Assembly: GCA_963845185.1 (NCBI GenBank)
Contig: CAWJRG010000005.1
Coordinates: forward strand, 224,001-288,000
Length of the DNA: 64,000 nt
Source of the DNA: an uncultured bacterium
GTDB lineage: Bacteria > Oederibacteriota > PGYV01 > CAWJRG01
Direction of reading: 5' to 3'
The position numbers and the translations under genes are program-made. The stretch's first letter is position 1, and every line of letters begins with the position of its first letter. This document shows, piece by piece, positions 27,426 to 56,243 of this stretch. Under the pieces are notes generated by a model, which had not been told where the DNA came from, did not search any database, and saw only the letters and a list, made by a program, of their open reading frames with translations.

Positions 27426-27437
27426 ATAAGCCTCCTT

Positions 27438-34451: not shown

Positions 34452-34462
34452 ACTGTACCTCC

Positions 34463-34561
34463 CAAGCAAGAGTTTATTTTGCAAACCCGTAGGGTGCAGC
34501 AAAATATTACTCTTGCTTGCACCCGTTCCAGTCCAAGGCGATAGCCGAGGACAAGCGGTGC
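34463..34561 (-). repeat. Family A SD-abutting double hairpin (lemA leader)
   Basis: caagcaagag-taa-tattttgc..gcaaaata-aa-ctcttgcttg running into GGGAGG; second hairpin gtcc..ggac. Confidence 0.92.
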
Positions 34562-37788: not shown

Positions 37789-37821
37789 ATTATCCTTTTT
37801 TTTAAATACCTGTCATTGCGA

Positions 37822-37890
37822 GAGTTAAGAAGTCCAGTGGACTTCTTAACGGGTAGTCACATCATTTTTTTATAATATAAAAACTACCCT
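37822..37890 (+). mobile_element. Element B (~69 bp double hairpin) inserted in a GTCATTGCGAG-type repeat
   Basis: gttaagaagtcc-agt-ggacttcttaac gggtagt..actaccc; flanks gtcattgcga | aaagtaacgaagca. Confidence 0.7.
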
Positions 37891-37928
37891 AAAGTAACGA
37901 AGCATTGACATACTTAAAGTGGCATAGT

Positions 37929-38840
37929 TTATTTTGTCTTTATTATATATTTCTCCACCATGTGATGCGGATAATAAGACATTTTGGCCTTTCTTAACCC
38001 CTCATTGCCTAAATCCTGTTCCCTGTTTATGAATTTGAATTTACCAAGGAATTTCTCGCAGAACATCTGGTTTATTGCCTGATAAATGCCCTTGAACTCA
38101 TGGTTCGCCTTTTCAATATGCACAACCGCGGTTTCAGGGTTTAATTCGCCTGCTACTGTAAACCCGTGCATTATGCTGTCTATTTTCAATGCTGCGCCTA
38201 TCACCGGAAGCTTTTCATAATTTTCCAGTATTTCCATGACTGCAATATTCTCGTTTAAAAGCGAAATGTCGTCCTTGCACGGTTTCATATCACACCATTT
38301 TTTTTGAAAATCTATGCATTCCTTTGTTACTTTGCCTTCTATAGCCACAAACTCGTGATTTGGGTACATGTTTTTAAATTTTTTTATCTGATTCCTTTTC
38401 CCGTCATACTTCCTGCCTTTTAATCCCACGAGGTCTTCTCTCAGGTAAACATAATCCCATTCCTTCCTGTCTTCTTCCACGGCAAACTCATCCTTAAGGC
38501 TCGGGAACCTATCGATAATCTCTTTTGTCGCTGCGAAAATCTGCGCGCATTTCCCGGCCCGGTCGCAGTTGCTCAACAGCGCCTGTATAGTTTTTAAAAT
38601 ATCGTTTTCGCCTATTGGCGGGAAAAAATAATGAGTGCCTTCCCTTTCTATCTCAACGCATATATTGCCGTTAAAACGCGATATTTTTCTTTCCTTTATA
38701 ACGCGCCAGGCAAACAATTCGGTAAACATAAGCTCCGAGACTTGCGGCAGGTATTTTTTTAGCGCAGCTTCGACAATCTCTCTGTGTTCCATGCCAAAAG
38801 AAACGCTTTCAGGGTATTCTGGTAAATGATTTATATTCAT
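37929..38840 (-). CDS. DUF2156 (aminoacyl-PG synthase C-terminal-like, GNAT) protein
   Basis: DYVY..LKGRKY..KRN, HIEKA, INREQDLG..GLRKAK.SY.P. Confidence 0.88.
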   Translation of the reverse strand: MNINHLPEYPESVSFGMEHREIVEAALKKYLPQVSELMFTELFAWRVIKERKISRFNGNICVEIEREGTHYFFPPIGENDILKTIQALLSNCDRAGKCAQIFAATKEIIDRFPSLKDEFAVEEDRKEWDYVYLREDLVGLKGRKYDGKRNQIKKFKNMYPNHEFVAIEGKVTKECIDFQKKWCDMKPCKDDISLLNENIAVMEILENYEKLPVIGAALKIDSIMHGFTVAGELNPETAVVHIEKANHEFKGIYQAINQMFCEKFLGKFKFINREQDLGNEGLRKAKMSYYPHHMVEKYIIKTK

Positions 38841-38886
38841 ATGTTTTTCACGGGTAAAAATTTCTCCTTTGGTAAGATCTCGAGGT

Positions 38887-39915
38887 TTATAAGATTATCA
38901 CCTTGCCGTTACCTTTTGTAATTTCCCCTATATTATAAACTTTTTCTTTTCTTTCAATTAAAAATTTTTTTATTGCAGATTCTTTTTTCCTGTCCACTAT
39001 AAGCACCATGCCTATACCCATGTTATAAACACGGTGCATTTCAATATCATTTACTTTTCCAAGCTTTTGGATTAGTTTGAATATCGGCAAAATTTTCCAG
39101 CTGAATTTATTAATGACACAGTTTGTGTTTTTCGGCATGACTCTCGGTATATTGTCGTAAAATCCTCCTCCTGTCAGGTGAGCTATTCCGTGAACATGTT
39201 TAAAATATTTTTGTATCAGCGGGTAAACGGATTTTAAATAAGATTTATGAGGTTTCAAAAGCGCTGCGCCAAGCGTCGTGCCCAGCTCCTTAATATGCCT
39301 TGTATATGGAATGTTTTTGCCTTCAAATATCTTCCGCGCAAGCGAATACCCGTTTGTATGCAGCCCCACTGACGCAAGGCCCAGCACAACATCGCCTTTT
39401 TTGACTTTTTCCCCTGTTATTATCCTGCCTTTATCTATTTGGCCGATAATGGTGCCTACGAGGTCATAATCCCCCTGTTTGTACATGCCCGGCATTTCTG
39501 CTGTTTCCCCGCCGATTAACACACACTTATTTTCTCTGCAGGCTTTTGACAGGCCTTTTATTACGTCAACAAGCACATTGCCCCGGAGCTTACCTGTGCC
39601 GAAATAATCGAGAAAAAACAGGGGTTTTGCGCCCATTACAAGTATGTCGTTTACACAATGGTTCACTATGTCGCAACCCACAGTATCATGGATATTCAGT
39701 TGCTGGGCTATTTTTAATTTTGTACCTACCCCGTCCGTGCTTGCCACGAGCAGCCTGTTATCTGCTCCTTCAAGCCTGTACACGCCGCCAAATGAGCCGA
39801 TATCCGTGGCTGTATTTTTGTTAAAAGTTGACTTGATAAAAGCTTTTGCCCTGTTCAGCGCTTTTGCTGCAGCATCTATGTCAACTCCGGATTTTTTATA
39901 CAAATTTGACTTCAT
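38887..39915 (-). CDS. purM: Phosphoribosylformylglycinamidine cyclo-ligase
   Basis: YKKSGVDI, STDGVGTK, GGETAEMPG, HLTGGG. Confidence 0.96.
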   Translation of the reverse strand: MKSNLYKKSGVDIDAAAKALNRAKAFIKSTFNKNTATDIGSFGGVYRLEGADNRLLVASTDGVGTKLKIAQQLNIHDTVGCDIVNHCVNDILVMGAKPLFFLDYFGTGKLRGNVLVDVIKGLSKACRENKCVLIGGETAEMPGMYKQGDYDLVGTIIGQIDKGRIITGEKVKKGDVVLGLASVGLHTNGYSLARKIFEGKNIPYTRHIKELGTTLGAALLKPHKSYLKSVYPLIQKYFKHVHGIAHLTGGGFYDNIPRVMPKNTNCVINKFSWKILPIFKLIQKLGKVNDIEMHRVYNMGIGMVLIVDRKKESAIKKFLIERKEKVYNIGEITKGNGKVIIL

Positions 39916-39953
39916 TTGATTTTCCTTTTTTCAATTTGAATTTACTGCGAATT

Positions 39954-41021
39954 TCAGAACTTCGGATACGACCCGAGTATTTTCACAAACCCGCACTCCC
40001 TTGCTACTTCGGCCAGTGCTTTTTTAACCTTAAAATCGTCCTTATACCCGGTAAAATCCACAAAAAAATAATAATCCCATGCCTTTTTTCCCGAAGGCCT
40101 TGATTCAATGCTTGTCAGGTTTATGCCGTATTTTGAAAGCGGCTTCAAAAGATTGTAAAGGGCTCCGACTTTGTCTTTTATCGAAACCATTATGGAAGTT
40201 TTGTCATTCCCTGTTTTTCTGCTTTCTTCTTTGCCGAGGATAAAAAATCTTGTGGTATTGTCCGTCATATCCTCAATTGATGAAGCAATTATATTCAATT
40301 TATACATTGACGCAGCAAGTTTGTCGCCTATGCCGGCTGATTTTTTATCTTTTGCGGCCAGCATTGCTGATTTTGAATTGCTGGAAACTTCCTTGAGCTC
40401 GGCATGGGGCAAATTTGCCTCAAGCCAGTTCCTGCACTGTGCCCTAGTCTGGGGGTGAACGTAAACAACTTTTATGTCTTTTAAGTGTTTTGCTTTCGAT
40501 AGAAGATTGTGCTTAATATCCAGCATTACTTCGGAGCATATTTTCAGGTCAAAATCCGCAAACATGTCAAATGTGTAATTGACCGCGCCTTCGGTTGAGT
40601 TCTCTACAGGCACTACGCCATAATCAACATTGCCTTTTTCAACTTCCATAAACACATCTTTTATGCTTTCCGCCGGTATGTATTCCGTTGCACTGCCGAA
40701 CCTCTTCATAGCCGCGAGGTGCGTATAGGACGCCGGCGCTCCGAAATAAGCTACCCTGACTTTCCTCTGCAAATCCCTGCTGGCGGAAAAAATCTCGTTA
40801 TATACCGCCTCAATGGCCCGATGCGGGAACTTCCCTTTTGAGGCTTTTTTAATATTGTTCAGTACATTCGCTTCTCTTGCCGGGTCGTACACTCCGCTTT
40901 CGTTTTTAATTTTTAAACCGGCTATATTTTTTACAGCTGTGGCCCTCTCGTCAAGAAGACTGACTATTTTTTTATCTATAATGTCAATCTGCTTCCTTAT
41001 GCCTTTTATATCTTTTGCCAT
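39954..41021 (-). CDS. pheA: Chorismate mutase / prephenate dehydratase
   Basis: N-terminal CM domain, PVENSTEG, NTTRF, IESRP, LGSYP. Confidence 0.96.
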   Translation of the reverse strand: MAKDIKGIRKQIDIIDKKIVSLLDERATAVKNIAGLKIKNESGVYDPAREANVLNNIKKASKGKFPHRAIEAVYNEIFSASRDLQRKVRVAYFGAPASYTHLAAMKRFGSATEYIPAESIKDVFMEVEKGNVDYGVVPVENSTEGAVNYTFDMFADFDLKICSEVMLDIKHNLLSKAKHLKDIKVVYVHPQTRAQCRNWLEANLPHAELKEVSSNSKSAMLAAKDKKSAGIGDKLAASMYKLNIIASSIEDMTDNTTRFFILGKEESRKTGNDKTSIMVSIKDKVGALYNLLKPLSKYGINLTSIESRPSGKKAWDYYFFVDFTGYKDDFKVKKALAEVARECGFVKILGSYPKF

Positions 41022-41022
41022 A

Positions 41023-41766
41023 TCATCCTCCAGATTGGGAATTGTGCATTGTGGGTTTGCCGATTACCTGTTTGTCAAAAAAGGCAATCTCCCGTTTTGT
41101 CAGGAAGCGCCATTGCCCCGGCTCAAGGCCGTCTATATTTACCGTGCCTACGCTTGTGCGTTTGAGCCAGACTGGCGGTATTCCTGCGGCAGCCATCATT
41201 AATTTTACCTGATGGTTAATTCCTTCGGTAATCGTGATATAAATCACGTCATTTTTATTGTTGCGCTGGTAAATTCCAACGTCTTTTGCCTTCAAAAATC
41301 TCCCGCCTATTTTAATGCCTTTCTTTAATTTATTCAAGGCATAATCATTCAGCCTGCCCTTTATTTTGGCAACATATACTTTCCTTACCTCTGAACTCGG
41401 ATGCGTAATTTTATTTGCCCAGTCGCCGTCGTTTGTCAGAAGCAGGCAACCGGTGGTATTGTAATCAAGCCTTCCTGCAGGAAAAATACGCATATTCAGC
41501 CCTACAATGTCCGTAACCGTCTTTCTTCCCCTGTCGTCAGACACCGTGGTGACGCACCCCTGCGGCTTGTTAAGGACTATATAAACCATTCTTTCGGGCT
41601 TTATAAGTTTGCCTTCAAATTTTACCGCGTCTTTTCCAGGGTTCACTTCAAATCCCGGAGTTGTTATTGTATTGCCGTTTACCTTAATTTGCCCCTGAGA
41701 TATGAGTTCTTCAGCTTTTCTCCTTGAAGTTATGCCGCAGCGGGCAATATATTGTTGTAATTTCAT
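41023..41766 (-). CDS. rluB: S4-domain pseudouridine synthase (RluB/RsuA family)
   Basis: SRRKAE, LNKP, GRLD, LLTNDG; follows scpB. Confidence 0.85.
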   Translation of the reverse strand: MKLQQYIARCGITSRRKAEELISQGQIKVNGNTITTPGFEVNPGKDAVKFEGKLIKPERMVYIVLNKPQGCVTTVSDDRGRKTVTDIVGLNMRIFPAGRLDYNTTGCLLLTNDGDWANKITHPSSEVRKVYVAKIKGRLNDYALNKLKKGIKIGGRFLKAKDVGIYQRNNKNDVIYITITEGINHQVKLMMAAAGIPPVWLKRTSVGTVNIDGLEPGQWRFLTKREIAFFDKQVIGKPTMHNSQSGG

Positions 41767-42473
41767 TCTGTTCCTGTATCCCCTTCCGGCCCCGGCCTGC
41801 TTTCTGTTGCCTTACCGCCGTCCTGCCCAGGCTCAGCTTCCGGCTGCGGCTTTCCGACAGAACCAGCGCTTTCTTCTTCAAAATTAAATACGGTCTGGTT
41901 TTTGACGTTCGCAACCCTTTCTTCCCACTTTTCTATGTTTTCCTCTTTTTCGAGTATGTTCTTTATCTCGTCTATTTTAGGCAAATCCTCAAGCGAGTTT
42001 ATGCCCAGGTATTGCAGAAATTCCTTTGTTGTGCTAAATAGAAGCGGCCTGCCCGGCGAGTCTTTCCTGCCTGATATTTTTATAAGGTTTCTTTCAAGGA
42101 GGGTATGGTATACGCCGTCAGAATTTACGCCTCTTATAAGCTCCACTTCCTGTTTTGTAAGCGGCTGCTTGTAAGCTATTATCGAAAGCACCTCAAGTGA
42201 AGGTTTCGACAGCCTCGCGAGCATCTTGTTTTTATATAATTTCTTTATAAAAGGCGCGTATTCCGCGTTTGTAAGAAGCTCATAGCCGCCTCCTATCTCC
42301 CTTATGCTTATTGGCGACCCTGCCTCCTTAAACTGGATATTGAGCCTGTCAATGGCCTCTTCTGCTTCCTTTGGCTGGACCTCCAGCACCTCGGCTATAG
42401 TCGAAATCGGCAAAGGTTTGTCGCTTGTAAAAAGCAGAGCCTCTATTATTTTTTCAATCGGTTTATCCGGCAT
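41763..42473 (-). CDS. scpB: SMC-Scp complex subunit ScpB
   Basis: IEALLF, LSIIAYKQP, IRGV, PGRP..TT..FL; start placed at MPDKP. Confidence 0.93.
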   Translation of the reverse strand: MPDKPIEKIIEALLFTSDKPLPISTIAEVLEVQPKEAEEAIDRLNIQFKEAGSPISIREIGGGYELLTNAEYAPFIKKLYKNKMLARLSKPSLEVLSIIAYKQPLTKQEVELIRGVNSDGVYHTLLERNLIKISGRKDSPGRPLLFSTTKEFLQYLGINSLEDLPKIDEIKNILEKEENIEKWEERVANVKNQTVFNFEEESAGSVGKPQPEAEPGQDGGKATESRPGPEGDTGTE

Positions 42474-42550
42474 TTTTGTCCTTTTTTGTTGCAACGGTTT
42501 ATTGTTGTAGAAACGCCCCACCGGGTCGTCTCGACTTTATTAATAAAGAA

Positions 42551-43312
42551 TTATTCCTGGATGTTATTTAAAATCCCCATATCGATGTCTTTTTGTACGA
42601 GGATAATTTTTATGTCGTCAAAAATTTTTTCCTGATAAACGTTTATGACCCTTAAGCGCATGAGCTCCAGTATCGCGAGAAAAAGCGACACTACGTACAG
42701 CCTGCTTTTATTTTCACTTACAAGGCTGAAAAAACTTACGGATTCCGAATTTTTTAAAAGACCGATAAGCTCGTACATCCTGTCTTTCACCTTCATTGTC
42801 TCGCCCGGTATGAGGATAAGCCGCCTTTCCTTTATCCGGCCGAGCACTTCATCCATGGCTTTCACAAGCGCGTACATGTCGAGTGTAAGTTCCTTGTCCT
42901 GCGCGCTGATATTTATCGGGTAAAGTCTTTCAAACAAATCGCGTTTTCTCGCCTCAAACAGCTTCATTTTTTCCGATATTTCCTTGAAGGTGTTGTATTC
43001 TATGAGGTGCTGAACAAGGTCGAGCCTCGGGTCCTCTTCCTGATCCTCGACAAACTCGTCCTTGGGCAGAAGCATTTTTGACTTTATATAAATAAGCGTC
43101 GCCGCTATCACAATGAACTCGCTCGCAATGTCGAGATTGAGTTTTTTCATCATTTCAATATACGCGAGGTATTCCTCGGTAATCTTGGCTATTGGAATAT
43201 CGTAAATATCTATCTGGTTTTTCTTTATAAGGTATAAAAGCAGGTCAAAAGGGCCCTCAAATACCGCGAGCTTTAGCTGGTAATTTTCCTGTGCTGCCTG
43301 TGCCGCGCTCAT
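42551..43312 (-). CDS. scpA: Segregation/condensation protein ScpA
   Basis: FEGPFDLLLYLI, IKSKMLLP, EDPR, FLAILEL. Confidence 0.95.
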   Translation of the reverse strand: MSAAQAAQENYQLKLAVFEGPFDLLLYLIKKNQIDIYDIPIAKITEEYLAYIEMMKKLNLDIASEFIVIAATLIYIKSKMLLPKDEFVEDQEEDPRLDLVQHLIEYNTFKEISEKMKLFEARKRDLFERLYPINISAQDKELTLDMYALVKAMDEVLGRIKERRLILIPGETMKVKDRMYELIGLLKNSESVSFFSLVSENKSRLYVVSLFLAILELMRLRVINVYQEKIFDDIKIILVQKDIDMGILNNIQE

Positions 43313-44286
43313 ACTTCACTCAGGTGCATAAGTTTTCTCACATGCGTCATGGTTTCCTCTGCAGTTTTCCGCGCCTGTTTATTGCCTTCGGCCATTATTG
43401 ACGCAATATCGGCCTTTTCCACTTCTTTCCTTTTTTCCCTTATAGGCACAAGTCTCGCGTTTATTTTCGCCGCCAGGCTGTTTTTGCAGTCTACGCAGCC
43501 GAGCTTTCCTGCCTTGCAGTCAGCCACAAGCGCGTCGTATTCTTTTGAGTTATAAATCCTGTGAAACGCGTTGCCCGCGCATGTTTCTGGATGCCCCTGG
43601 TCGTTTTTTCTGATCTTCTGCGGGTCAGTGAACATCAGCCTCACTTTTTCATTCACGGTTTTATCATCGTCAGTTAAGAATATCGCGTTATCGTAACTCT
43701 TGCTCATTTTCCTGCCGTCAATGCCGGGCAGCTTCGGGAATTCGGTAAGAATTTCTTTTGGTTCGTTAAAATATTTGCCGTATAAATTATTGAACCTCCG
43801 CGCGATTTCGCGCGTGATTTCAAGATGCGGCCTCTGGTCCTCGCCTATTGGGACTTTGTCCGCATTATACACAAGTATATCCGCGGCCTGCAGTACCGGA
43901 TATCCCAGGAATCCGTAGGTTGAAAGGTCCCTGTCCTTTAGTTCCTGCCTCTGTTCTTTATAAGTCGGGTTTCTTTCAAGCCACGGCACAGGCACAAGCA
44001 TGCCGAGTAAAAGGTAAAGTTCAGCGTGTTCTTTTACAGACGACTGGACAAAAAGAACGGCCTGCGCCGGGTCAAGCCCGACACTGAGCCAGTCCTTGAA
44101 CATATCCAGCGTATTTTCACGCACATTTTCCGGTTTTTCATAAGTTGTCGTAAGCGCGTGCCAGTCTGCCACCATATAAAAGGCCCGGTATTTATCCTGC
44201 ATGTCTACATAGCTTTTTAACACACCTTCAAGATGGCCCAGGTGCAATTTACCTGTCGGCCTCATTCCGCTTAGTACGCTTTGCAT
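43309..44286 (-). CDS. trpS: Tryptophan--tRNA ligase
   Basis: SGMRPTGKLHLGH, YPVLQAADI, VPIGEDQ, KMSKS. Confidence 0.96.
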   Translation of the reverse strand: MQSVLSGMRPTGKLHLGHLEGVLKSYVDMQDKYRAFYMVADWHALTTTYEKPENVRENTLDMFKDWLSVGLDPAQAVLFVQSSVKEHAELYLLLGMLVPVPWLERNPTYKEQRQELKDRDLSTYGFLGYPVLQAADILVYNADKVPIGEDQRPHLEITREIARRFNNLYGKYFNEPKEILTEFPKLPGIDGRKMSKSYDNAIFLTDDDKTVNEKVRLMFTDPQKIRKNDQGHPETCAGNAFHRIYNSKEYDALVADCKAGKLGCVDCKNSLAAKINARLVPIREKRKEVEKADIASIMAEGNKQARKTAEETMTHVRKLMHLSEV

Positions 44287-44354
44287 ATTTTCTCCAATCA
44301 ACATTTTTGCATCAGCCCCAGGTATTCACAATCAGAGGCTTGGATACCCGAATT

Positions 44355-44984
44355 TTACATAAAAAATTTCATTAAAAGCATAATAAATTCAAATATGGGC
44401 CTGAATATAACGTTAAGCAGCCCTGTGACAAGAAGAATTATTACTATTATCATTCCCATCGGCTCAAGCCTGGCATATTTATATGCCAGATTTTCAGGCA
44501 GAAGCCCCATAATAATTTTTGACCCGTCAAGCGGCGGTACAGGTATCAGGTTAAAAGCAGCCAGCACAACATTTATGATCAGGTTTGCTTCCACAAAAGC
44601 CTGGAGCCCTGGCGACTGCAGCGCCGGCATAAATCCGGCTAATTTCCATATTAACAAGCCTACGATTGCGAGCAGTATGTTTGAACCCGGCCCTGCCAGA
44701 CTTACAAGCATCATGTCCCGCCTTGGATTTTTAAAATATCTCCAGTCCACAGGCACTGGTTTTGCCCCGCCAAGCACAAAAGGGGAATGAGTCAATATAA
44801 GGCCGACCGGCAGTATTATTGACCAGAATGGGTCTATATGGGGAAGCGGATTTAAAGTAAGCCTGCCCATGGTCTTTGCCGTGGGGTCTCCGAGTTTATA
44901 AGCTACGTAACCGTGTGATACTTCATGCACAATGACCGCAAGTATTAATACTATTATTTGTATTGCTATGCCCATTTTTTTCAC
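44355..44984 (-). CDS. Site-2 protease (M50)
   Basis: HEVSH, AGPGSN, NLIPVPPLDG. Confidence 0.93.
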   Translation of the reverse strand: MKKMGIAIQIIVLILAVIVHEVSHGYVAYKLGDPTAKTMGRLTLNPLPHIDPFWSIILPVGLILTHSPFVLGGAKPVPVDWRYFKNPRRDMMLVSLAGPGSNILLAIVGLLIWKLAGFMPALQSPGLQAFVEANLIINVVLAAFNLIPVPPLDGSKIIMGLLPENLAYKYARLEPMGMIIVIILLVTGLLNVIFRPIFEFIMLLMKFFM

Positions 44985-45107
44985 CTGATAAATTTTAAGT
45001 TGAATAATTATATCATATTTTAAAAATTAAGAAACCGTATTTTAACTGCCGCATTGCGTATATGAAACGATTAATATCTAGTAGATTACTGAAAAATTAT
45101 TTTAACG

Positions 45108-45203
45108 TGTCATTGCGAGAAGCGAAGCGACGAAGCAATCTCTCATTTAAAGAGAAAAACGAGATTGCTACGCCCATAAAAATAAAACGGGCTCGCAATG
45201 ACA
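45108..45203. repeat. GTCATTGCGAG-type palindromic repeat (RPE/REP-like), uninterrupted copy
   Basis: Terminal IR tgtcattgcgag/ctcgcaatgaca; inner IR agcaatctc/gagattgct. Confidence 0.85.
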
Positions 45204-45231
45204 AATTTCAGCGTTATTTTAGCAACTTCCC

Positions 45232-45268
45232 AAATAAAAAAGGCGGCTTAATGCCGCCTTTTTTATTT
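45232..45268. terminator. Bidirectional-type intrinsic terminator
   Basis: aaataaaaaaggcggc-ttaat-gccgccttttttattt. Confidence 0.85.
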
Positions 45269-45297
45269 GTATTAAAATGTTTCACAGTCACTATTTA

Positions 45298-45945: not shown

Positions 45946-46030
45946 GTTTCCCTCCTTTTTAAAAATTTTAAATACTTATTGTATATTATTGTATAACAGA
46001 GGTAAAAAAATGTCAAAATGTTTTATTCTA

Positions 46031-47209: not shown

Positions 47210-47258
47210 TTTCTGCTCCCTCTGAATTATCTCCGATTATGTCGGAGGGTTCAAAAAC

Positions 47259-47520
47259 TTCCCTTCCCCCTCGACGGGAGTTCAATACCCCTGTGGGGTG
47301 TTGAACGGGTAGAAGTCATCTTAATACTCTCAAATATGTCCTTTCTACACACAGCCGGGATGGGGGTGAGGTAGCGGCTGATTCTGTATCACTTCACGCC
47401 AACATCAGATCCCAAAACTTCTTTTTCTTATTTTGCATTATATCTTTTAGCTTAATTCACTTAGTTGTTGCTGCTGCTTCACCCTCACTTTTTTCTCCTC
47501 TCCCGTCAAGGGAGAGGAGA
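47259..47520. repeat. Inverted pair of CCCTC..GAGGG-type REP-like repeats, left copy interrupted by element B
   Basis: cccttccccctcgacgggag..ccgggatgggggtga versus tcaccctcac..ctcctctcccgtcaagggagaggag. Confidence 0.7.
47278..47351 (+). mobile_element. Element B, divergent copy
   Basis: gttcaatacccc-tgt-ggggtgttgaac gggtagaag..ctttctac. Confidence 0.6.
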
Positions 47521-47552
47521 CCGCCCACTTTAGTCGGTGGATTAATTAGAAT

Positions 47553-48473: not shown

Positions 48474-48526
48474 ATTCGAAACTCCCTTGCTTTCCGTTCA
48501 GAACCGGTTTACGCGTGCATAAAATG

Positions 48527-48557
48527 ATACAGGGCGGGCTTACCGCCCGCCCTGTAT
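48527..48557 (-). terminator. Hairpin (terminator or stabiliser) between FG-GAP cargo gene and PorV-like gene
   Basis: atacagggcgggc-ttacc-gcccgccctgtat. Confidence 0.6.
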
Positions 48558-48587
48558 ATTTGCCGCGTTCTGCCTGCGGCATGGATT

Positions 48588-50258
48588 TTATTTTACAACC
48601 GAGATTTTCTTTGTTACGGTCTTTGTCTTTGAAGCTACCCTTAAAATATACACCCCATTGGCCACGTTCGCACCGCTGTCATTTACGCAGTTCCACTGTA
48701 TTGCATTGACGCCGGCAATTACGTCTGCCGCGCTTAAATCTTTGTGCCATACTGTCCTGGCGTTTATATCAGTTATAATTATCTTGATATCCTGCGCGGT
48801 TACAAGCGGGAACCTTATTGTGGTTGTCCCCTTGCAGGGATTGGGATAGTTGTATACGTTTTTCTCCGACATCTCTTCGGTAATGTTTATCTTATAAACT
48901 GACTGTTTGCCCACATTGCCGGCAGAGTCCTTTACAGCCGCGGTAAATACCCACGGGCCGGTTTCAAGTCCGGATAATTTTATATCCGGTGAAGCGCTGA
49001 ATACAGCCTTGTCCGCTGAAAAAGCACCGGAATTTTTAGAAACACAGTACATGTATCCTGCTATGCCGTTTAAGTCGTCCTGCGCCTGCATATGTATTAC
49101 AGGAGAGTTGTCAGCGTACCACATGCTCTGTTCCGGATGGGACGAGGAACTGACCACCGGCGCAGCAGGCGGTTCCTGGTATATTACCCTAACTGTATTG
49201 GTCCTCATATGCGTGAACACTATATCATTCAGGCCGTCGCCGTTGACATCGCCCGCAGTAACTTCCACCGGGCCGAAAGTCTGGTCTTTATCGTCTGTTA
49301 CTTTATAGCTTTTTACCACCTGGAATACATTATCTTTCTGCATAATTATATCGATGCTGTCGCTGTCCCTGTCTGCCGTGATGATTTCATTCTTGCCCCC
49401 TCCTGTAACGTCAGCCACGCACATCCCGTTTGGCCTGAGGCCCGCCAGCTTTACAGTCGTTGTCAGCGTTAAGTTCGGCCCTTCAAGTATGGAAACCGTG
49501 TTATCGTAAAAATTCGCCGTTATAATATCGTTGCTGTCGTTGTTCATTACATTTGCTATTGCCACTTTGCAAGGCCCGCTTCCCGTTGCTATGTCCTTTT
49601 CCTTAACAAGCCCCGTGGCCGCGAGTTTTATGACGCTCACGTTTGCCGAGTTGTAGTTCGCGCTCACAACAACGTTTTCATTGCCTATTTTTCCCATGGC
49701 CACATCCGTGGGGTTCCCCGGCACCGGTATTTCCAGTTTCTGCGTATTTTTTGTCAGTTCATTCATTATAACGACAACTTTGCTGTCGTTATAAACCGCG
49801 CACGCTATGTCCGGCTGGCCGTTATTGTCCAGGTCGCCTATCGCCACTCCTACCGGATGTTTTCCGACTGCAATCGTGTCTTTTAATACTGGTGTGCCGT
49901 TTTCGTTCGTATATACCATTAAAGTGCCGTCATCGTAATTTGATATGACTAACATGCCGTTCCATATTGCCACGCCCCTCGGTGATTTCCCGGTCTGCAC
50001 CGGTATTGATAAAGCGTTGGTATTTGAAAAAATGGAAACAGACGAATTCGGCGTGTTTGAAGTATCCTGGCCTATCAGCGTGCCTGCCCCGAAATTTGCG
50101 ACAATTACCTGGTTTTTCCCGTTTGCAATTAAATCCCCTATGGCAATTCCCCTGGGACATACACCCGTTGACACTGTAGTAATATTTGACAGGTTATTCG
50201 CGTTAACTGTCCCAAAAACCAAAAGAACTACTGCTAAAACAACCATTGTTTTTTTCAT
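48588..50258 (-). CDS. Secreted FG-GAP/VCBS beta-propeller protein with C-terminal YPNP/FlgD-Ig sorting domain
   Basis: GDLDNNGQPD and GDVNGDGLND repeats; C-terminal VYNYPNP..W..VNDSG..VANGVY. Confidence 0.85.
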   Translation of the reverse strand: MKKTMVVLAVVLLVFGTVNANNLSNITTVSTGVCPRGIAIGDLIANGKNQVIVANFGAGTLIGQDTSNTPNSSVSIFSNTNALSIPVQTGKSPRGVAIWNGMLVISNYDDGTLMVYTNENGTPVLKDTIAVGKHPVGVAIGDLDNNGQPDIACAVYNDSKVVVIMNELTKNTQKLEIPVPGNPTDVAMGKIGNENVVVSANYNSANVSVIKLAATGLVKEKDIATGSGPCKVAIANVMNNDSNDIITANFYDNTVSILEGPNLTLTTTVKLAGLRPNGMCVADVTGGGKNEIITADRDSDSIDIIMQKDNVFQVVKSYKVTDDKDQTFGPVEVTAGDVNGDGLNDIVFTHMRTNTVRVIYQEPPAAPVVSSSSHPEQSMWYADNSPVIHMQAQDDLNGIAGYMYCVSKNSGAFSADKAVFSASPDIKLSGLETGPWVFTAAVKDSAGNVGKQSVYKINITEEMSEKNVYNYPNPCKGTTTIRFPLVTAQDIKIIITDINARTVWHKDLSAADVIAGVNAIQWNCVNDSGANVANGVYILRVASKTKTVTKKISVVK

Positions 50259-50271
50259 GTTTTTCCTCCTT

Positions 50272-50433
50272 AGAGTCCGTTGATTTTGCTGAGCGTCAAC
50301 AGCGCAAGCAAAATCTTACGGAGTCTTATACCCGCTCCAGTCCCGAACTTGCCAAGAGTCAAATAGTCCAATGGACTATTTGACGGGTAGTTTCCAAAAT
50401 TTATTATCATCTAAAAACTACCCTGAAGCGGTG
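50272..50433 (-). repeat. Family A double hairpin carrying element B (FG-GAP gene leader)
   Basis: tccg-taa-gattttgct..agcaaaatc-aa-cgga next to AAGGAGG SD. Confidence 0.88.
50356..50424 (+). mobile_element. Element B inserted in family A repeat
   Basis: gtcaaatagtcc-aat-ggactatttgac gggtagttt..aaactaccc. Confidence 0.72.
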
Positions 50434-50453
50434 TTCCTACTTTTACTTATATA

Positions 50454-50482
50454 ATTATATATCCTATTATCCTGATTGTCAA
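50454..50482 (-). promoter_or_regulatory. Consensus sigma70 promoter
   Basis: TTGACA (50482-50477), 17 nt, TATAAT (50459-50454). Confidence 0.75.
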
Positions 50483-50542
50483 GACTGTCTAAAAATTTGT
50501 ATTACGTTCCTAAAAGTGATATAAAAATATGTCTATAATAAC

Positions 50543-50576
50543 AAAACCCCGGTTGCTGAAAAACAACCGGGGTTTT
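50543..50576 (-). terminator. Intrinsic terminator
   Basis: aaaaccccggttg..caaccggggtttt downstream of the OMP gene. Confidence 0.85.
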
Positions 50577-50607
50577 ATATTGCGAAAGCTTTAAAAAATA
50601 TGCTTAT

Positions 50608-52068
50608 TTAAAACGCGTACTTTGCCGAAATCTGGGAAGCTATTGAGCCCGGCATTTTCAAGTTCAGGCTGCCGATATTGGCTACAGGAAGCCAGTCCGC
50701 ATTGATTCCGCCTGTAATCGTCGCGTCAATTGTGGCTGCTCCCACTTTGATTGAAACGCCGCCTGACATATTTACGGAATTGTTAAATCCAAAGTCCATT
50801 GTCATTTTTGGCGCCGGATTATGTGTTACCCCGCCGGTGACTGTCTGTGTTTGTTGCAGGCTGACGCTGTTTATCAAGTTCTTGCTCAAGCCGCCTCTTA
50901 CAACCAGCGCGTCATTGAGTTTTCCTTCTGCTGCAACATAAAGCGGTATGCTTACAACCGACATGTCAATTTCCTCATTGTCCACAACTGTGCCAGGATT
51001 TACCAGCGTATACTTGTATGTTTCTTTTGCTGATGCATAATCAATGGCTAATCCCGGAATTAGTGTCACTTTATCATTTAAGGCAAGATTTGACCCAGCG
51101 CCGAAGTTTATTCCGATCAAACTGCGTGTATCGACTTCTTTATCATTGGTATCGAGCGCGCTTGTAAAATTTCCATCGTAAGGAAAATCACCATCAAGCT
51201 GCTGAGTATCTGTTGTCTGCATATTATCAAACGTAAAACCAAGGCCGACAATAATAGGAGCAACAATAGACGCAAGGTTTGCCCTTGCGTTTAATCCAAA
51301 ATCTATACCGGAATTTGATTGTAAGGTTTCCGACTGAAAAAGATCTTTGTTTGCGTAATTAGTATCTGTCCCTTTATTGTTGATCATTGGCAATGAAATT
51401 GAAATGCCTAAATCAACCATATGCACGCTTAAACCCAATCCCAGATTAATTGCCGTTGACCCGTTTGAAAAATTTTCAAGGGTTCCGTTATTGCCCGCCG
51501 GGTTTGTTAAACTGTTTTTTTCGCTCTGGGAACTGTCCGCAAGGCCCAGCATAATGCCTGCCGACATTACTCCCAGCCCAATATCCGGGATCTTCATCCC
51601 ATAAAGCAGCCCATAGGACCTGTCAGGCGTAAGTATTGTGTGCGGGTCCTCCCCAAGATTACTGGTAATAAACCCGGCTCCAAGGCTCATCATATTCGGC
51701 GGCATTAAGAGCGAACCCTTGTAAGGCAGCGCAAATACGCCAATCACGCTTTTCTCAAGACTGAGCGTGATATATCCGCTGTCCGGAGTTGTTACCTGCT
51801 GAATAATTGAAGCGTTAATACCGCCCCCTGTCATTTCGGTATACAGCAAATTAATCGTGCCCATTGTGTCCAGGCTTACCGAAGAATTTGAGTTTACTGC
51901 AATCAGGTCTTTGTAGTTCACTGCCTGGCCAGGAAATGTAGCGATTAAAGAATCATCAGAGCTTACCATCCACGCAGGCACGCCAAGCCCGGCTATTCTT
52001 GAATTCGTCGCAAAAACCATTCCGCAAAAAGCCAAAACAACCGCAATAACCAATAAAGTTTTTTTCAT
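50608..52068 (-). CDS. Putative outer-membrane beta-barrel protein
   Basis: Signal peptide, amphipathic strands, C-terminal SAKYAF; strong SD and own terminator. Confidence 0.72.
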   Translation of the reverse strand: MKKTLLVIAVVLAFCGMVFATNSRIAGLGVPAWMVSSDDSLIATFPGQAVNYKDLIAVNSNSSVSLDTMGTINLLYTEMTGGGINASIIQQVTTPDSGYITLSLEKSVIGVFALPYKGSLLMPPNMMSLGAGFITSNLGEDPHTILTPDRSYGLLYGMKIPDIGLGVMSAGIMLGLADSSQSEKNSLTNPAGNNGTLENFSNGSTAINLGLGLSVHMVDLGISISLPMINNKGTDTNYANKDLFQSETLQSNSGIDFGLNARANLASIVAPIIVGLGFTFDNMQTTDTQQLDGDFPYDGNFTSALDTNDKEVDTRSLIGINFGAGSNLALNDKVTLIPGLAIDYASAKETYKYTLVNPGTVVDNEEIDMSVVSIPLYVAAEGKLNDALVVRGGLSKNLINSVSLQQTQTVTGGVTHNPAPKMTMDFGFNNSVNMSGGVSIKVGAATIDATITGGINADWLPVANIGSLNLKMPGSIASQISAKYAF

Positions 52069-52199
52069 TGTTTCCTCCTTTTGTTTTGAGATAAATTACT
52101 TCAGGTCATTTTCTTTGATTCACACCTCCCTTCATAGCTTTAAATTCCTCTATTCCTTTTGGAATAAAAATATTACTGGCTAAGCCCCAGGGACTTTTA

Positions 52200-53159
52200 T
52201 TACAGCTGCAACTCAAGCGAAAGTATGTGTGTGTTGTCGAAAACACCCACGCCGTTCCAAAAAACCGGCCTGTATGTGTAATTAACTGAAACAATGCCGA
52301 ATTCAAACTGCGTAATGGACAGCCCTACGCCCAGTGATATAAAAGACGGTGATTTTAAATCCAGGTTCAAAGTGTATCCTGCCCTGAGAAAAAATATTTT
52401 TGCTACGCCGTCTTCAAGTCCGAACGCAACCTGGCCGGTGTCGTAAAAATCCTGGATATAATCAACATCCACAAGCAATAAATTATTTTTCTGCAAATCT
52501 ATCTTATAAGCCGCGCCGAGGCGCAGTGTCAGCGGCAGCGGTTCGCTGTCCTTTATCAGCGTTACCGGCATGCCTAAATTCTGGAGCACAGCTCCGAATT
52601 TAAGGTTTGAACCCGGCGGCGTAAGCTGGGCCCCCAGATCAAGAGCGTAAGCCGTAAGAGGATATATGCCGATATTCTCGTAAATTATTTTCAGGTTCAT
52701 TCCCACGTCAATGTTTTTATTGAAATCCCCGGGAAGAAAATAATCAAGCTTCGACGCATAGGTTCCCGCAAGCACAAAATCATAATAATTTACCGGCGCA
52801 TCGGTGGCATTTTCGTTTGATATTGTCGGCATATACCTGTAAACCCCTGAAATGCCCACTTTGCCTTCTACAAAAAAGTTTTCAAGGCTTTGCGCGTACG
52901 ATATATTGTGCACGCCAATATCGGCGAAAGAAAACCAGTACATGTACTGCATTTGTATTTTTGTTATATCGGCAATGCCTGCCGGATTGTAATTTATGGA
53001 TTCGACATCGTTGCCAGCGGCAGTATACGCGCTTCCCATGCCTGTTGCCCTGCCGCCGACCGCGACATTTAAAACGTCCCCTATTGTGGTGCCTGCGGCG
53101 TATATGTTGACGGATATGAGGATGATGGCCATGCCTGCGACTAATGTTTTAACTTTCAT
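52200..53159 (-). CDS. PorV/PorQ-family (FadL-like) outer-membrane barrel
   Basis: LNVAVGGRATGMGSAYTA..D....NYNPAG, LDLG, LPLTLRLG, LRAGY. Confidence 0.83.
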   Translation of the reverse strand: MKVKTLVAGMAIILISVNIYAAGTTIGDVLNVAVGGRATGMGSAYTAAGNDVESINYNPAGIADITKIQMQYMYWFSFADIGVHNISYAQSLENFFVEGKVGISGVYRYMPTISNENATDAPVNYYDFVLAGTYASKLDYFLPGDFNKNIDVGMNLKIIYENIGIYPLTAYALDLGAQLTPPGSNLKFGAVLQNLGMPVTLIKDSEPLPLTLRLGAAYKIDLQKNNLLLVDVDYIQDFYDTGQVAFGLEDGVAKIFFLRAGYTLNLDLKSPSFISLGVGLSITQFEFGIVSVNYTYRPVFWNGVGVFDNTHILSLELQL

Positions 53160-53228
53160 TTAAACTCCTTATCTTTAACTACCCGGTCTTAAGTATTTCA
53201 ATTAAAAATCTAAATTCTAGAATCAAAA

Positions 53229-53918
53229 TTATTTCAGTTTTCTGTAAAGCTTGAATAATTCCTTAAATGCCCTTAATATGACTTTTATCTTCGCGCCGGT
53301 CTGTGCTCCTGCCGTCCGCGGATAATGGTGAACTCCCACTTCCTTTATTTTATAACCCATCTTATTTGCCTTTGCCAGCAGTTCGGTTGAAATCATGGCG
53401 CCCTCAGCCTCAGGCTTTGCCCTGTCTATTATTTCTTTTTTAAAAAGCTTGAAAGCGCAGTCAACATCCCGCACCTTGAAACGGAAAAGCAGCTTAACCA
53501 TGGTGCCCCACGCGAAAGCGTTCAGCTTCCTCATAAAAGAATCTGCCCTTTTTATCCGGTATCCGGCTATGAAATCCGCTTCATTCGTGTATTTAGCGAG
53601 CTCTTTGATTTCATTGACGTCAAACTGCCCGTCGCCGTCGGTAAAAAATACCCATTCCAGCCTTGCGCCGTATAAACCCGATTTAACCGCTGCGCCGTAA
53701 CCCTTGTTTGTTTCGTGGTTTATGACCCTTATTTTGGGGTTTTCCTTTGCGAGCGCTTCGGCTATCTCGCGTGTCCTGTCCTTTGAGCCGTCATTTACAA
53801 CAATAACCTCATAGTCACTGCATATTTCAGAAAGGACTTTCGCTGTTTTTCTTGTGAGTGCCTCTATGTTTGCTTCTTCGTTATGCGCCGGAAAAAACGC
53901 TGAAATCTGCAAGCCCAT
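53229..53918 (-). CDS. GT2 glycosyltransferase (polyprenol-phosphate sugar synthase-like)
   Basis: PAHNEE, VNDGSKD, TDGDGQF, DVDCAFK. Confidence 0.9.
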   Translation of the reverse strand: MGLQISAFFPAHNEEANIEALTRKTAKVLSEICSDYEVIVVNDGSKDRTREIAEALAKENPKIRVINHETNKGYGAAVKSGLYGARLEWVFFTDGDGQFDVNEIKELAKYTNEADFIAGYRIKRADSFMRKLNAFAWGTMVKLLFRFKVRDVDCAFKLFKKEIIDRAKPEAEGAMISTELLAKANKMGYKIKEVGVHHYPRTAGAQTGAKIKVILRAFKELFKLYRKLK

Positions 53919-53952
53919 TATATTTCCACCTTAATTGAAAATTGATAATTAT

Positions 53953-55254
53953 TCACTTTTCTTTCAATATTATACCGCTTACTTCATTCGCAACCCTTAT
54001 GCTGTAGCTCATTCCCCTGTCCTCGGGATACACCTGGCTCATATTCGCTATGTACAGGTTTTTTACCGGCGTCCTGTAATCAAGCTTTATTTTCGAATAT
54101 TCCTTTTCAATCACAGGCTGGCTGAACGGCTCCCTGAACACCCTCCACTCTATAACGTCATTCGGGTCAAACTTGGGATTTATCTGCTTGAGGTACGCAA
54201 AGAAAATTTCCTTAACTTCCTCGTTTGGGGCCTTGTAAAGCGCGTCATCCGTTGACAGGTATTTTCCTAGGTAAATAATCACATTGTTGTTGTAGTGTTC
54301 CTTCGGCATGAAATTTGTATGCTCCACCGCCGCCACAAAAGGCGACTGCCTGTCGCCTATGTTCAGCCAGTATATCTTGCTCAATGATTTTTTTACGGCC
54401 ATGACAAGGTTCAGCGCGCCGTAATACTGGATTTTGCCCAGCCGCTCCATGTAGGCTGTGTCCGGGAATTCCACCATGTGTTTAATAAGAGCCGGCGCGC
54501 AGGTAAGGATGATTTTATCAAACTTGTATTCCCTGCCCCTTGCCTCCAGTCCGACGGCAGTTCCGTTTTCGATGAAAACCCTGTTGCCGGAAACTCCTTT
54601 TAAAATCGATACCCCCTGCTTTATATTGACGGATTCCAGCTCGTCTATGAGCGTTTGGAATCCGTCAAGAATATAGCCCAGGACTTCTTTTGTGCCTCCC
54701 TTTTCGCGCGAAGCAAAGCGCGCATGAATCCTGCCGTAAAGCCAGGCCATTGCGATATCTTTTGCCTTGTCGCCGAACTTCTGCTCAAGCAGAGCCCCCC
54801 ACACGACCTTATATACTTTTTTGCCTATATATTTTTCTATCCATTCTTTTACTGTTATCTTCTCGTATTTTTTCCAGTTTTTTACCCTGGCGAGGTATAC
54901 CGTCATTAACCCGAGCTTTATCCTGCTGATTATAGACAAAGGGGAAAACAGCATCAAGTCCATAGGCGTGGTAAAATTATGAATTTTCCCCTTATAGTAA
55001 AATCCGACTTTTGACTCTATCCACCAGAGTTTGTCGGTAAGTCCTAATTCGTCCACCAGTTTTATGATATCAGTATCGCTTTTAAAAATATGCCGGTAAA
55101 ATTTGTCGAGCCTTGATCCGGCGAGCGTGAAACCCTGCGCAAGTCCGCCAAGCTCAATGTTGGACTCAAAAATAGTTACTTTATGCCCGGCGCCCGAAAG
55201 CCGGTATGCCGCCGTAAGGCCAGCTATGCCTCCTCCGACAATAGCAATATTCAT
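53953..55254 (-). CDS. NAD(P)/FAD-dependent oxidoreductase (amine oxidase / protoporphyrinogen oxidase-like)
   Basis: IVGGGIAGL, LGGLA, C-terminal YPEDRGM. Confidence 0.88.
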   Translation of the reverse strand: MNIAIVGGGIAGLTAAYRLSGAGHKVTIFESNIELGGLAQGFTLAGSRLDKFYRHIFKSDTDIIKLVDELGLTDKLWWIESKVGFYYKGKIHNFTTPMDLMLFSPLSIISRIKLGLMTVYLARVKNWKKYEKITVKEWIEKYIGKKVYKVVWGALLEQKFGDKAKDIAMAWLYGRIHARFASREKGGTKEVLGYILDGFQTLIDELESVNIKQGVSILKGVSGNRVFIENGTAVGLEARGREYKFDKIILTCAPALIKHMVEFPDTAYMERLGKIQYYGALNLVMAVKKSLSKIYWLNIGDRQSPFVAAVEHTNFMPKEHYNNNVIIYLGKYLSTDDALYKAPNEEVKEIFFAYLKQINPKFDPNDVIEWRVFREPFSQPVIEKEYSKIKLDYRTPVKNLYIANMSQVYPEDRGMSYSIRVANEVSGIILKEK

Positions 55255-55388
55255 TATAAATTATGCTCCTCTTTGTTTTGAAATTTGTTGGCTTAGAGAA
55301 GTATATCACAGGAGTTTAGATAGTCAATTGCAAAGATATATTATAAGATTTTCTTTTGGACTTTTATTTTTTTGAACATTTAATTATA

Positions 55389-56069
55389 TTATTTGAGTTT
55401 TAAAGCAGGCTTTTTCCCCAGGATGTAAACCTTTACTTTTTTTCTTCCCCATCTCAACGCCTCAGGCGTGCTGTTATAGCAAAGGTCTATCCTTTTGCCT
55501 TTTATATCTCCCCCTGTATCGCCTGCCCACGCGAAGCCGTACCCGTCCACGTATATCAGCGACCGCAGGGGTATTACCCTGGGGTCCACGGCCGCAATGC
55601 CGTATCTCGCCCTCCAGCCAAGGAATGTAGTGCCTGCCCAGTCAAGCTGTCCCGAATCCGGGTAAGGGTCATAACCTGTGGCTTCCATGGTAAAGACGTC
55701 ATGCATGTAAGTGACCTGCGGCGCGTTTATCGGGCATTTTTTGTCTGATGCGCCCCTTATCAGATAAGCTTCTTCCGGCTTTTTTAATATGCCTGTTTCG
55801 AATTTCTCGGCGCTTTTTAAGATTTTCCCGGCAAAAGAAAATTTCTCCTTTACCGCGTTTTTATATCCTTTCACGCCTTCTTTAATCCATATCAGCCAGC
55901 CCTTCTGCGCGTAATTGCTTTTTCTTTCGTTTACCTTGAATTGTATATATTCCTTTTCCACAGAGGAATATTTATTTATCCCGAAAGAAAAAATTACCCC
56001 CAGGAACCACGCGCAAAAAAGAACCACAGCTGTTATTTTCATTGTTTCAAGGTATTTCCCCGTTGTCAT
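55389..56069 (-). CDS. Membrane-anchored 3D-domain (MltA-like) protein
   Basis: MEATGY, AVDPRVIPL, DTGGDIKGKRIDL, WGRK. Confidence 0.88.
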   Translation of the reverse strand: MTTGKYLETMKITAVVLFCAWFLGVIFSFGINKYSSVEKEYIQFKVNERKSNYAQKGWLIWIKEGVKGYKNAVKEKFSFAGKILKSAEKFETGILKKPEEAYLIRGASDKKCPINAPQVTYMHDVFTMEATGYDPYPDSGQLDWAGTTFLGWRARYGIAAVDPRVIPLRSLIYVDGYGFAWAGDTGGDIKGKRIDLCYNSTPEALRWGRKKVKVYILGKKPALKLK

Positions 56070-56080
56070 TTATATCTCCC

Positions 56081-56243
56081 TGCAAGAGTTTATTTTGCAA
56101 GCCTTCAGGGCGCAGCAAAATATTACTCTTGCATGCACCCGCTCAAGTCCGAGGCCTTCAGGCCGAGAGTCAAATAGTCCAGTGGACTATTTGACGGGTA
56201 GTTTCCGTAAATTATTATCATATAAAACTACCCTAAAGCGGTG
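56081..56243 (-). repeat. Family A double hairpin carrying element B (3D-gene leader)
   Basis: tgcaagag-taa-tattttgc..gcaaaata-aa-ctcttgca directly followed by GGGAGA SD. Confidence 0.92.
56167..56234 (+). mobile_element. Element B inserted in family A repeat
   Basis: gtcaaatagtcc-agt-ggactatttgac gggtagttt..aaactaccc. Confidence 0.72.

Follow-up and report, generated by a model that had tools for sequence, protein, structure and literature searches.

A gene-less two-hairpin element nested within unrelated palindromic repeats of an uncultured Oederibacteriota genome

The 64,000-nucleotide stretch analyzed here (the window; positions 224001 to 288000 of contig C5 in G000, a 3.50-Mb genome assembled in 11 contigs and 99.4% complete) contains four copies of a gene-less DNA module of 64 to 72 nt (∼67 nt), termed element B, each lying within another repeat. 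Element B consists of two adjacent hairpins: an A is followed by a 12-bp hairpin (G-T-Y-A-A-A-T-A-R-T-C-C, with the loop NGT) and then by a second stem, GGGTAG(TTT)...(AAA)CTACCC, which closes an AT-rich loop of ∼25 to 31 nt and which, on folding, reaches 9 bp in the main type (GGGTAGTTT/AAACTACCC). Coordinates of B copies run from the A ahead of the hairpin through the end of CTACCC. An earlier note on this DNA had described four copies on the + strand with a 12-bp stem, 3-nt loop, GGGTAG, AT-rich spacer, and CTACCC; reading of the window sequence confirms their number, positions, and strand, and the geometry is present in all four, with CTACAC as the terminal motif of the copy at 47279.

Two of the copies occupy the same position (site 2) of a repeat of ∼100 nt, termed Family A. 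Copy 3 (50357–50423, +; covariance model [CM] score of 82.4 bits) is preceded by Family A profile positions 1 to 90 (50268–50356) and followed by GAAGCGGTG, and copy 4 (56168–56233, +; 83.4 bits) is preceded by profile positions 5 to 90 (56081–56167) and followed by AAAGCGGTG. The reference for the unfilled host is the Family A copy at 34461–34559 (+), which matches the full profile (1 to 100) and adjoins cctcc, the reverse-complemented Shine-Dalgarno sequence of a minus-strand gene starting at ∼34452; further Family A copies of the window lie at 8166–8260 and 27434–27531. Copy 1 (37823–37889, +; 77.8 bits) is situated directly 3' of the left terminal repeat GTCATTGCGAG (37812–37822) of a degenerate element that we call G-host. 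Its hairpin spans 37824–37850 (stem GTTAAGAAGTCC/GGACTTCTTAAC, loop AGT), with GGGTAG at 37851–37856 and CTACCC at 37884–37889. An empty G-host element, resembling a MITE (miniature inverted-repeat transposable element) with inverted ends, is found at 45108–45202 (+; GTCATTGCGAGAAGCGAAGCGACGAAGCAATC ... CTCGCAATG) and serves as the reference for the host of copy 1. Copy 2 (47279–47350, +; 43 bits) represents a subfamily with the spacer AAGTCATC...TTTCTAC; its stem, GTTCAATACCCC/GGGGTGTTGAAC, has one G.T pair, the 3' half of its stem 2 is degenerate (CTACAC), and it lies within a C-rich/G-rich palindrome (ccttccccctcgacgg, B, acagccgggatgggggtgagg). An unfilled palindrome of the same loose class is present at 47479–47520 (+; ctcctctcccgtcaagggagaggag). 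The empty and filled forms proposed earlier for Family A and for the GTCATTGCGAG element are therefore genuine pairs, and the third pair (filled at 47259 and empty at 47479–47520) holds as one loose class of palindromes but not as one tight family. The three compensatory pairs that distinguish the stem of copy 1 from those of copies 3 and 4, and the single G.T of copy 2, are likewise as described.

Folded as single strands, three of the window copies form two hairpins on either strand, with z scores of −7 to −8.6, and the 47279 copy folds with z scores of −3.3 to −3.5, again on either strand. No Rfam family matched at gathering score across the window, and the sole match at an E value of ≤1 on four B-bearing loci was a chance match to rimP elsewhere.

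Genome-wide, an nhmmer profile seeded with 44 copies found by regular expression detected 59 copies of B at an E value of <1e-4. A covariance model (R1) built from 51 trimmed copies gave 72 matches at an E value of ≤0.01, of which ∼65 are real; the others arise where the palindromic hairpin is matched a second time on the reverse strand, or from a lone hairpin. Six of the real matches belong to a sister type, B', which has the architecture of B but a different stem 2 (GTTGAG/CTCAAC, GGCGA/TCGCC, or GGGAGA/TCTCCC); stem 2, invariant within the main type, thus changes on both sides between types. In the 51 trimmed copies, 8 of the 12 pairs of helix 1 vary on both sides, 97.4% of cells are paired, the observed covariation was reached in none of 500 shuffles, and sliding the partners lowers pairing to 26 to 45%. 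Some bases of the stem, the loop NGT, and GGGTAG are invariant. The recurrence of B is not due to chance, and B is a real unit with a covarying stem.

The contexts of the 59 copies were assigned from the Family A profile coordinates of their flanks and from junction strings, the class of C-rich/G-rich palindromes (C-type) being judged by eye. Family A hosts 42 copies: 21 at site 1 (A1), in the inner loop of the long hairpin at profile position ∼38/39, three of them a few nucleotides further 3'; 11 at site 2 (A2); 6 at site 2' (A2'); and 4 at site 0 (A0), between the reverse-complemented Shine-Dalgarno site and the element. A further 3 are in the MITE-like G-host element (GTCATTGCGAG...CTCGCAATGAC), and 14 are in C-rich/G-rich palindromes of at least three kinds or in hybrids; the six B' variants all lie within such palindromes. 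By eye, ∼15 junction types can be told apart, comprising the four Family A positions with variants, three kinds of C/G-rich palindrome, G-host, and B'. The orientation of B relative to its host is constant in all copies, and none of the 59 was seen in unique sequence (with C-type contexts judged by eye), so that the confinement of B to other repeats, first noticed in the window, holds across the genome and across at least three unrelated host families.

Family A itself combines a covarying long hairpin with a second hairpin containing tandem G.A and adjoins the Shine-Dalgarno site of a gene on the opposite strand. It gave 188 nhmmer matches genome-wide (roughly 150 to 190 copies), with 92 full-length empty copies compared to 42 filled with B, and it forms a tandem array with a period of 100 at C9:916520–917174. 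Two odd arrangements of B-like sequence were also encountered. At C9:145674–145790, a lone 5' half of a B-like hairpin (GAGTTAAATATTCCGGT) is followed by agca and a complete B, which is either a partial duplication or a case of B landing in B, and at C9:45199–45256 a solitary B-like hairpin (GTTGAATAATCC GAG GGATTATTCAAC) lacking stem 2 lies in otherwise unique intergenic DNA.

The boundaries of B are sharp. When B was removed in silico and the flanks were rejoined, the Family A profile matched across the junction in 16 of 21 site-1 copies, the matches running from profile positions 1 to 5 through 96 to 100. The empty G-host reads GTCATTGCGAG-(G/A)AG-CGAAGCGACG and the filled form reads GTCATTGCGAG-AG(TTAAA...CTRCCC)-CGAAGCGACG. 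For a C-type host, the filled copy at C9:888651 differs from a near-identical empty paralog (the left flank of a copy of an IS110-family insertion sequence [IS]) by B plus one G. Filled flanks miss 1 to 4 host nucleotides relative to the empty form, and the left flank ahead of the AG of B ends in C, G, or T, the preceding bases varying with context. The description of B as a discrete insert is supported by these comparisons, as is the absence of a target-site duplication, none of which is consistent across the junctions of the 59 copies. Duplication of AG was considered and rejected: only 15 of the 59 copies have AG after CTACCC, and CAG...CAG fits only part of the A1 copies.

That hosts might be recognized by structure, as had been suggested, is weakly backed. 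In 16 of 59 copies, a G/C hairpin with stems of ≥3 bp ends ≤1 nt from the junction, an enrichment over the 1.9% seen at control positions, but no such short hairpin is found at the junction of any A2, A0, or G-host copy. Perfect stems of ≥4 bp are not enriched (5 of 59 copies compared to 10.8% of controls). The placement of B just 3' of a short GC hairpin is a tendency and does not hold as a rule.

Our preferred reading, to which we would give about an even chance, takes B for a nested, nonautonomous insert that gained entry to several repeat families and whose present spread is mainly with its hosts and by exchange between them. Entry would have left B in a single orientation with respect to the host, with no duplication. 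In favor of this reading are the number of copies and their nesting, the hosts restored by excision, the agreement of empty and filled paralogs, the covarying helix 1, the strand bias described below, the range of Family A subtypes filled at site 1, and the presence of B at equivalent sites in relatives. It may now multiply mostly by riding on host repeats, as is suggested by A+B composites that come and go as units between relatives, and also through short-patch exchange between host copies, to which the linkage of flank haplotypes with B points. The original insertions may be the work of an activity that recognizes one folded single strand, the one antisense to the neighboring genes, and the inserting enzyme may be absent from this genome.

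Three groups of results bear on this reading, for the most part against it. The first concerns enzymes. The genome has no match to Y1_Tnp (PF01797; IS200/IS605 and REP-associated tyrosine transposases [RAYT], where REP denotes repetitive extragenic palindromic), a profile for which the control was positive in 6 of 14 genomes, and no match to TnpB (PF07282, Cas12f1-like_TNB); Y2_Tnp also gave no match, which is uninformative because its control matched nowhere. A helper of the Y1/HUH type or a TnpB, as envisaged in the earlier note, is therefore missing from a genome that is 99.4% complete. Nor does the genome contain the longer copies that had been anticipated, with a TnpA/TnpB, RAYT, IS110, GIY-YIG, or DUF559 open reading frame (ORF) between the ends of B: no copy carries a gene, and none encloses an ORF.

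The second group concerns relatives. Neither blastn against 40 other genomes nor the CM in 23 other genomes of the order detected B, G000 being the only member of its family and genus among the genomes compared. A metagenome scan with a strict hairpin pattern yielded 14 loci (L029 to L042, from the metagenome records Ga0181527, Ga0335078, Ga0074045, and Ga0074046) with 77 to 92% nucleotide identity to G000 in coding parts, carrying 17 copies of B at sites 0, 1, 2, and 2' and in G-host. Relatives retain the hairpin even where their intergenic DNA can no longer be aligned with that of G000, although the scan pattern required the hairpin and its conservation is to that extent biased. In four comparisons with conserved genes on both sides (L032, L030, L041, and L037), the relative has an A+B composite at a ribosome-binding site at which G000 has neither repeat; between L032 and C10:860790, Family A is present or absent as a whole element exactly at the Shine-Dalgarno sequence. 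L040 and C11:157281 share a gene start at which each has B, though not in the same Family A context, and L035 and L029 differ from G000 in arrangement; over these three comparisons, the repeats are either arranged otherwise or missing from G000. Across seven intergenic comparisons, there was no host copy with B in one genome and without it in the other; orthologous sites empty of B alone, the check proposed earlier, did not turn up, and whole composites varied in four. Three other sets of matches were set aside: an extra 1.1 kb in L038, considered as an autonomous element, comprises an ordinary gene plus a G-host element with B; 12 single pattern matches in genome contigs of unrelated phyla are due to chance, the one examined (L004) lacking the architecture of B; and viral contigs gave five pattern matches but no CM match.

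The third group concerns descent, on which the evidence points both ways. In favor of many gains, the stem-1a subtypes of Family A with B at site 1 number nine (TAGCGT, 3 of 22; TTTCGT, 3 of 16; AAGAGT, 1 of 15; GTCCGT, 3 of 14; TATCGT, 1 of 13; and four minor subtypes), subtype parsing having failed for 10 of 108 Family A copies. On trees that rest on 66 to 100 nt and are poorly resolved, so that counts of changes are inflated, the filled state requires 10 changes among 92 empty and 16 excised-filled Family A copies (FastTree; 12 to 16 in 200 shuffles), and the context class changes 17 times among 57 B cores, compared to 28 to 36 times when shuffled and a minimum of 5, with the loop half alone giving 14 changes and the hairpin half 21. 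Filled Family A copies are somewhat clustered and far from forming one clade, which also speaks for many gains. Descent or exchange is indicated by the context changes on the B tree and by flank variants. In Family A, the inner-loop variants CCGTCATTATGG (4 of 4) and CCGTCGAAGG (5 of 5) occur only beside B, and the common variant CCGTCAACAGGC is beside B in 0 of 23 copies; part of the spread can therefore be put down to gene conversion or to shared descent. B is accompanied by ∼10 nt of flank on different outer-stem backgrounds, as expected from short-patch conversion between hosts or from co-conversion at insertion. Hybrid copies (C9:930795, C9:855573, and C5:444965) combine a site-1 left junction with a site-2 or 2' right junction and point to recombination between copies of B. 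The tracking of context by B lineages, together with the linked flank haplotypes, suggests that much of the spread is hitchhiking and exchange between host copies rather than free transposition.

The alternative that survives best, which we nevertheless consider unlikely, is that B is not mobile alone but is an optional module of composite repeats, with a few origins by illegitimate recombination, that is now spread and lost only with its hosts and through homologous exchange (gene conversion) among the Family A copies and among the palindromes. That composites rather than B alone differ between relatives, that lineages of B follow context, that B-linked flank haplotypes lie on different outer-stem backgrounds, that hybrid junctions are as B-B recombination would yield, and that no enzyme candidate has matching ends are all in keeping with it. 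It requires, however, nonhomologous entry into at least three unrelated families, at several positions, with identical sharp ends of B each time. Hosts that are intact after in silico excision also argue against it, as does a hairpin kept in relatives with unalignable intergenic DNA, within the bias of the search pattern.

The two strands of B are not equivalent. Among 57 well-aligned copies, helix 1 in the + orientation of B has 17 G.T and 2 A.C mismatches (raw totals of 19 and 9, the excess coming from two misaligned or truncated copies), a ratio that lends less to the preferred reading than 19 independent events would, as the copies are related. By eye, relatives add three G.T and no A.C. 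In 51 of 59 copies, B is flanked on both sides by ORFs of the opposite strand (crude calls of ≥120 aa), and it is suggestive that the better-folding strand of B is antisense to local transcripts. Family A tends in the same direction, weakly and on a rough alignment (59 G.U versus 27 A.C). Better folding of the antisense strand makes a motif acting simply in mRNA less likely and favors a form that is single-stranded DNA, cDNA, or antisense.

This bears on a second alternative, by which B is a selected structured motif of leaders or spacers, e.g., a hairpin of RNA or DNA bound by a protein, with its nesting secondary. Compensatory changes alongside bases that never vary in GGGTAG, in the loop NGT, and in the stem would be expected of such a motif, as would the strong orientation bias relative to genes and the conservation in relatives. 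The favored folding strand is antisense to genes, however, and the structure is accordingly poorer in mRNA; most hosts lack B (92 full-length empty Family A copies against 42 filled); the placement of B with respect to the start codon takes at least five different forms; and neither an Rfam family (window and four loci) nor a CM match in the 23 other genomes of the order was found. Two candidate functions were examined and rejected: a small ORF in the mRNA sense, from the ATG of a conserved CAT, has a frame that stops after 5 to 12 codons and shifts with the stem variant, and a promoter (TTGAC plus an AT-rich −10 region) is incompatible with TTTAAC stem variants, in which TTGAC and ATG are gone. 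We regard a selected motif as distinctly improbable.

Resident mobile elements were also considered as the source of B. PF01548 (IS110 family) has seven matches in G000, and four identical copies of an IS110-family element of 1,289 bp encoding a 355-aa DEDD transposase lie at ∼322.9 kb in C1, ∼335.6 kb in C5, ∼330.3 kb in C9, and ∼445.8 kb in C10 (L024 to L027). Each copy sits in the loop of a C-rich/G-rich palindrome (...ctctccc-NNNNN, then GGGAGAGG...), and the copy in C9 directly adjoins a B' variant. The suggestion that some ISs target palindromic repeats is thus borne out in this genome, where the IS110-family elements land in the palindrome class used by B. Their ends, GGGAGAGGTAAT...CAGAGAAGGGG (also read as GGGAGAGGTAATATG... 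and ...TTTTCAGAGAAGGGG), are by eye unlike those of B (AGTYAAAT...CTACCC), which disfavors IS110 as the source of the ends of B, and no copy of B was found near the other IS110-family (DEDD) genes. The six identical RVT_1 matches of the genome all fall in a group II intron, whose six near-identical copies indicate that an active reverse transcriptase is present; likeness of the intron to B or Family A was sought and rejected, as nhmmer profiles gave nothing at an E value of ≤10 and blastn-short gave only words of 7 to 8 nt. Against this background, it is very improbable that B is a remnant or derivative of the IS110-family element or the group II intron mobilized by their proteins, given the shared palindrome class, the adjoining B', and the active reverse transcriptase on one side and the dissimilar ends, the dissimilar intron, and the lack of B near other IS110-family genes on the other.

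Equally remote in our estimation is a SINE-like (short interspersed nuclear element-like) origin, in which B, and perhaps Family A too, would be a retroelement copied by the group II intron reverse transcriptase: leaders with B would be transcribed and reverse transcribed, the cDNA would correspond to the G.T-tolerant strand antisense to genes, and this strand would fold and integrate at hairpin-rich repeats. If this were true, B would be a small structured element that has no transposase and homes into repeats via single-stranded cDNA.

Bacteria commonly carry small repeats that lack genes; among the smallest, the only well-understood case of movement is, to our knowledge, that of REP and REPIN sequences with RAYT. 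REP sequences have GTAG 5' of a palindrome, and a REPIN consists of two inverted REP hairpins. B resembles these and palindrome-associated transposable elements (PATEs) in its size, GTAG beside a hairpin, lack of target duplication, strand-specific structure, and intergenic dispersal. It differs from the REPIN/RAYT system in that G000 has no Y1_Tnp gene, from a REPIN in having one 12-bp hairpin, with GGGTAG 3' of it, and a different stem of 6 to 9 bp around an AT-rich loop, and from PATEs derived from IS200/IS605 in the lack of PF01797 and PF07282 matches and of a longer copy with separated B ends. Nor is a fixed tetra- or pentanucleotide apparent at the left flank, of the kind 3' of which IS200/IS605-type elements insert, although the lack of duplication agrees with such elements. 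In contrast to a classical MITE, the ends of B (AGTYAAAT... and ...CTACCC) are not inverted repeats and target-site duplication is lacking, and in contrast to an IS110/IS1111 derivative, its ends do not, by eye, resemble those of the resident IS110-family element. Integron attC sites have the order RYYYAAC ... GTTRRRY, with extrahelical bases, within a cassette array; judged by the sequence and layout of its copies, B differs in its reversed order (GTTAAAT ... ATTTAAC), in the GTC that replaces GTT in half of the copies, in its perfect, unbulged stem, and in its dispersal. Bacterial interspersed mosaic elements (BIMEs) of Escherichia coli and BOX elements of Streptococcus pneumoniae are modular composite repeats, and B is like them in forming part of repeats whose modules combine variously, but it is one module common to unrelated hosts at fixed internal positions rather than a partner in a regular mosaic.

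Closer in kind are SDR4 to SDR6, small dispersed repeats (SDRs) of Nostoc punctiforme, which are reportedly very small, gene-less, and nested mainly in other repeats or hairpins, with lengths of 21 to 27 nt, sharp unit boundaries, and no known enzyme. B shares with them, as they are said to be, its tiny size, lack of genes, nesting in repeats, and sharp ends; it differs in its length of 64 to 72 nt, its two hairpins of its own, its covarying 12-bp stem, its strand-specific wobble bias, and its occurrence in another phylum, and there is no sequence relation. B therefore belongs with nested small dispersed repeats as a functional class, i.e., discrete units inside repeats, and not as a sequence family. 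The portions of the literature on small nested repeats surveyed here, mostly superficially, contain no description of element B.

ISPa11, ISPpu9/10, and other ISs insert at REP sequences (Tobes and Pareja 2006, PMC1525189) and, like B and the resident IS110-family element, use palindromic repeats as landing sites; these are complete ISs with a transposase gene, whereas B is gene-less and its ends are not similar to those of the resident IS. The G+C clusters of yeast mitochondria (GC42 and others) are hairpin elements of tens of bases that merge and shuffle, have AG at their borders with a putative AG target duplication, and have co-converted flanks, and an intron-encoded reverse transcriptase of the same genome has been proposed as their helper (Wu and Hao 2015, PMC4478555). 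B is like the clusters in forming hairpins, in its size of tens of bases, in its bordering AG, in its hybrids, in the apparent co-conversion of flanks, and in sharing a genome with an intron-encoded reverse transcriptase. The clusters described there are GC-rich and organellar, with a putative AG duplication, whereas B has an AT-rich loop, AG on the 3' side in 15 of 59 copies, and specific hosts.

Element B offers a clean case, with ∼65 copies, sharp ends, a covarying hairpin, and a preferred strand in a genome without the usual hairpin-reading HUH enzymes. An insertion activity, if one could be found, would represent a new mode of targeting for folded repeats; if there is none, B shows how far hitchhiking and gene conversion alone can spread an insert. 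For annotation of this lineage, it matters that a Family A leader may be filled or empty, a difference of ∼67 nt of strongly structured sequence beside ribosome-binding sites.

Some observations on other repeats and genes of the genome accompany these results. The group II intron (L107) is present, outside the window, at C9:699931–701857, C9:∼811164–813089, C9:∼845005–846928, C10:∼383308–385233, C10:∼831383–833306, and C11:∼61535–63458, with a degraded copy at C1:∼269104–269908; it matches Rfam RF02005 and RF00029 above gathering score and has a reverse transcriptase ORF of ∼470 aa. It is inserted right after GGAGG-N5-6-ATGA (ribosome-binding site, start codon, and one base) of unrelated genes, and its 3' end brings its own AAGGAGG and ATG TCT ACT CAC, the latter continuing in frame into the signal-peptide codons downstream (MSTHKK...), so that the host gene could be translated from unspliced RNA. 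DUF559 and GIY-YIG have two matches each, none beside B. The interval C10:215250–216000 holds a small gene for a DUF559 protein (C10:215445–215765; Vsr-like endonuclease, ∼130 aa) with a copy of one C-type palindromic element to either side of it (aaccctcacc..ggccctc.cccgc...agggagaggg), and it is possible that a C-type repeat family is linked to the DUF559 nuclease. Genes of the type IX secretion system (T9SS) are also present in this genome.

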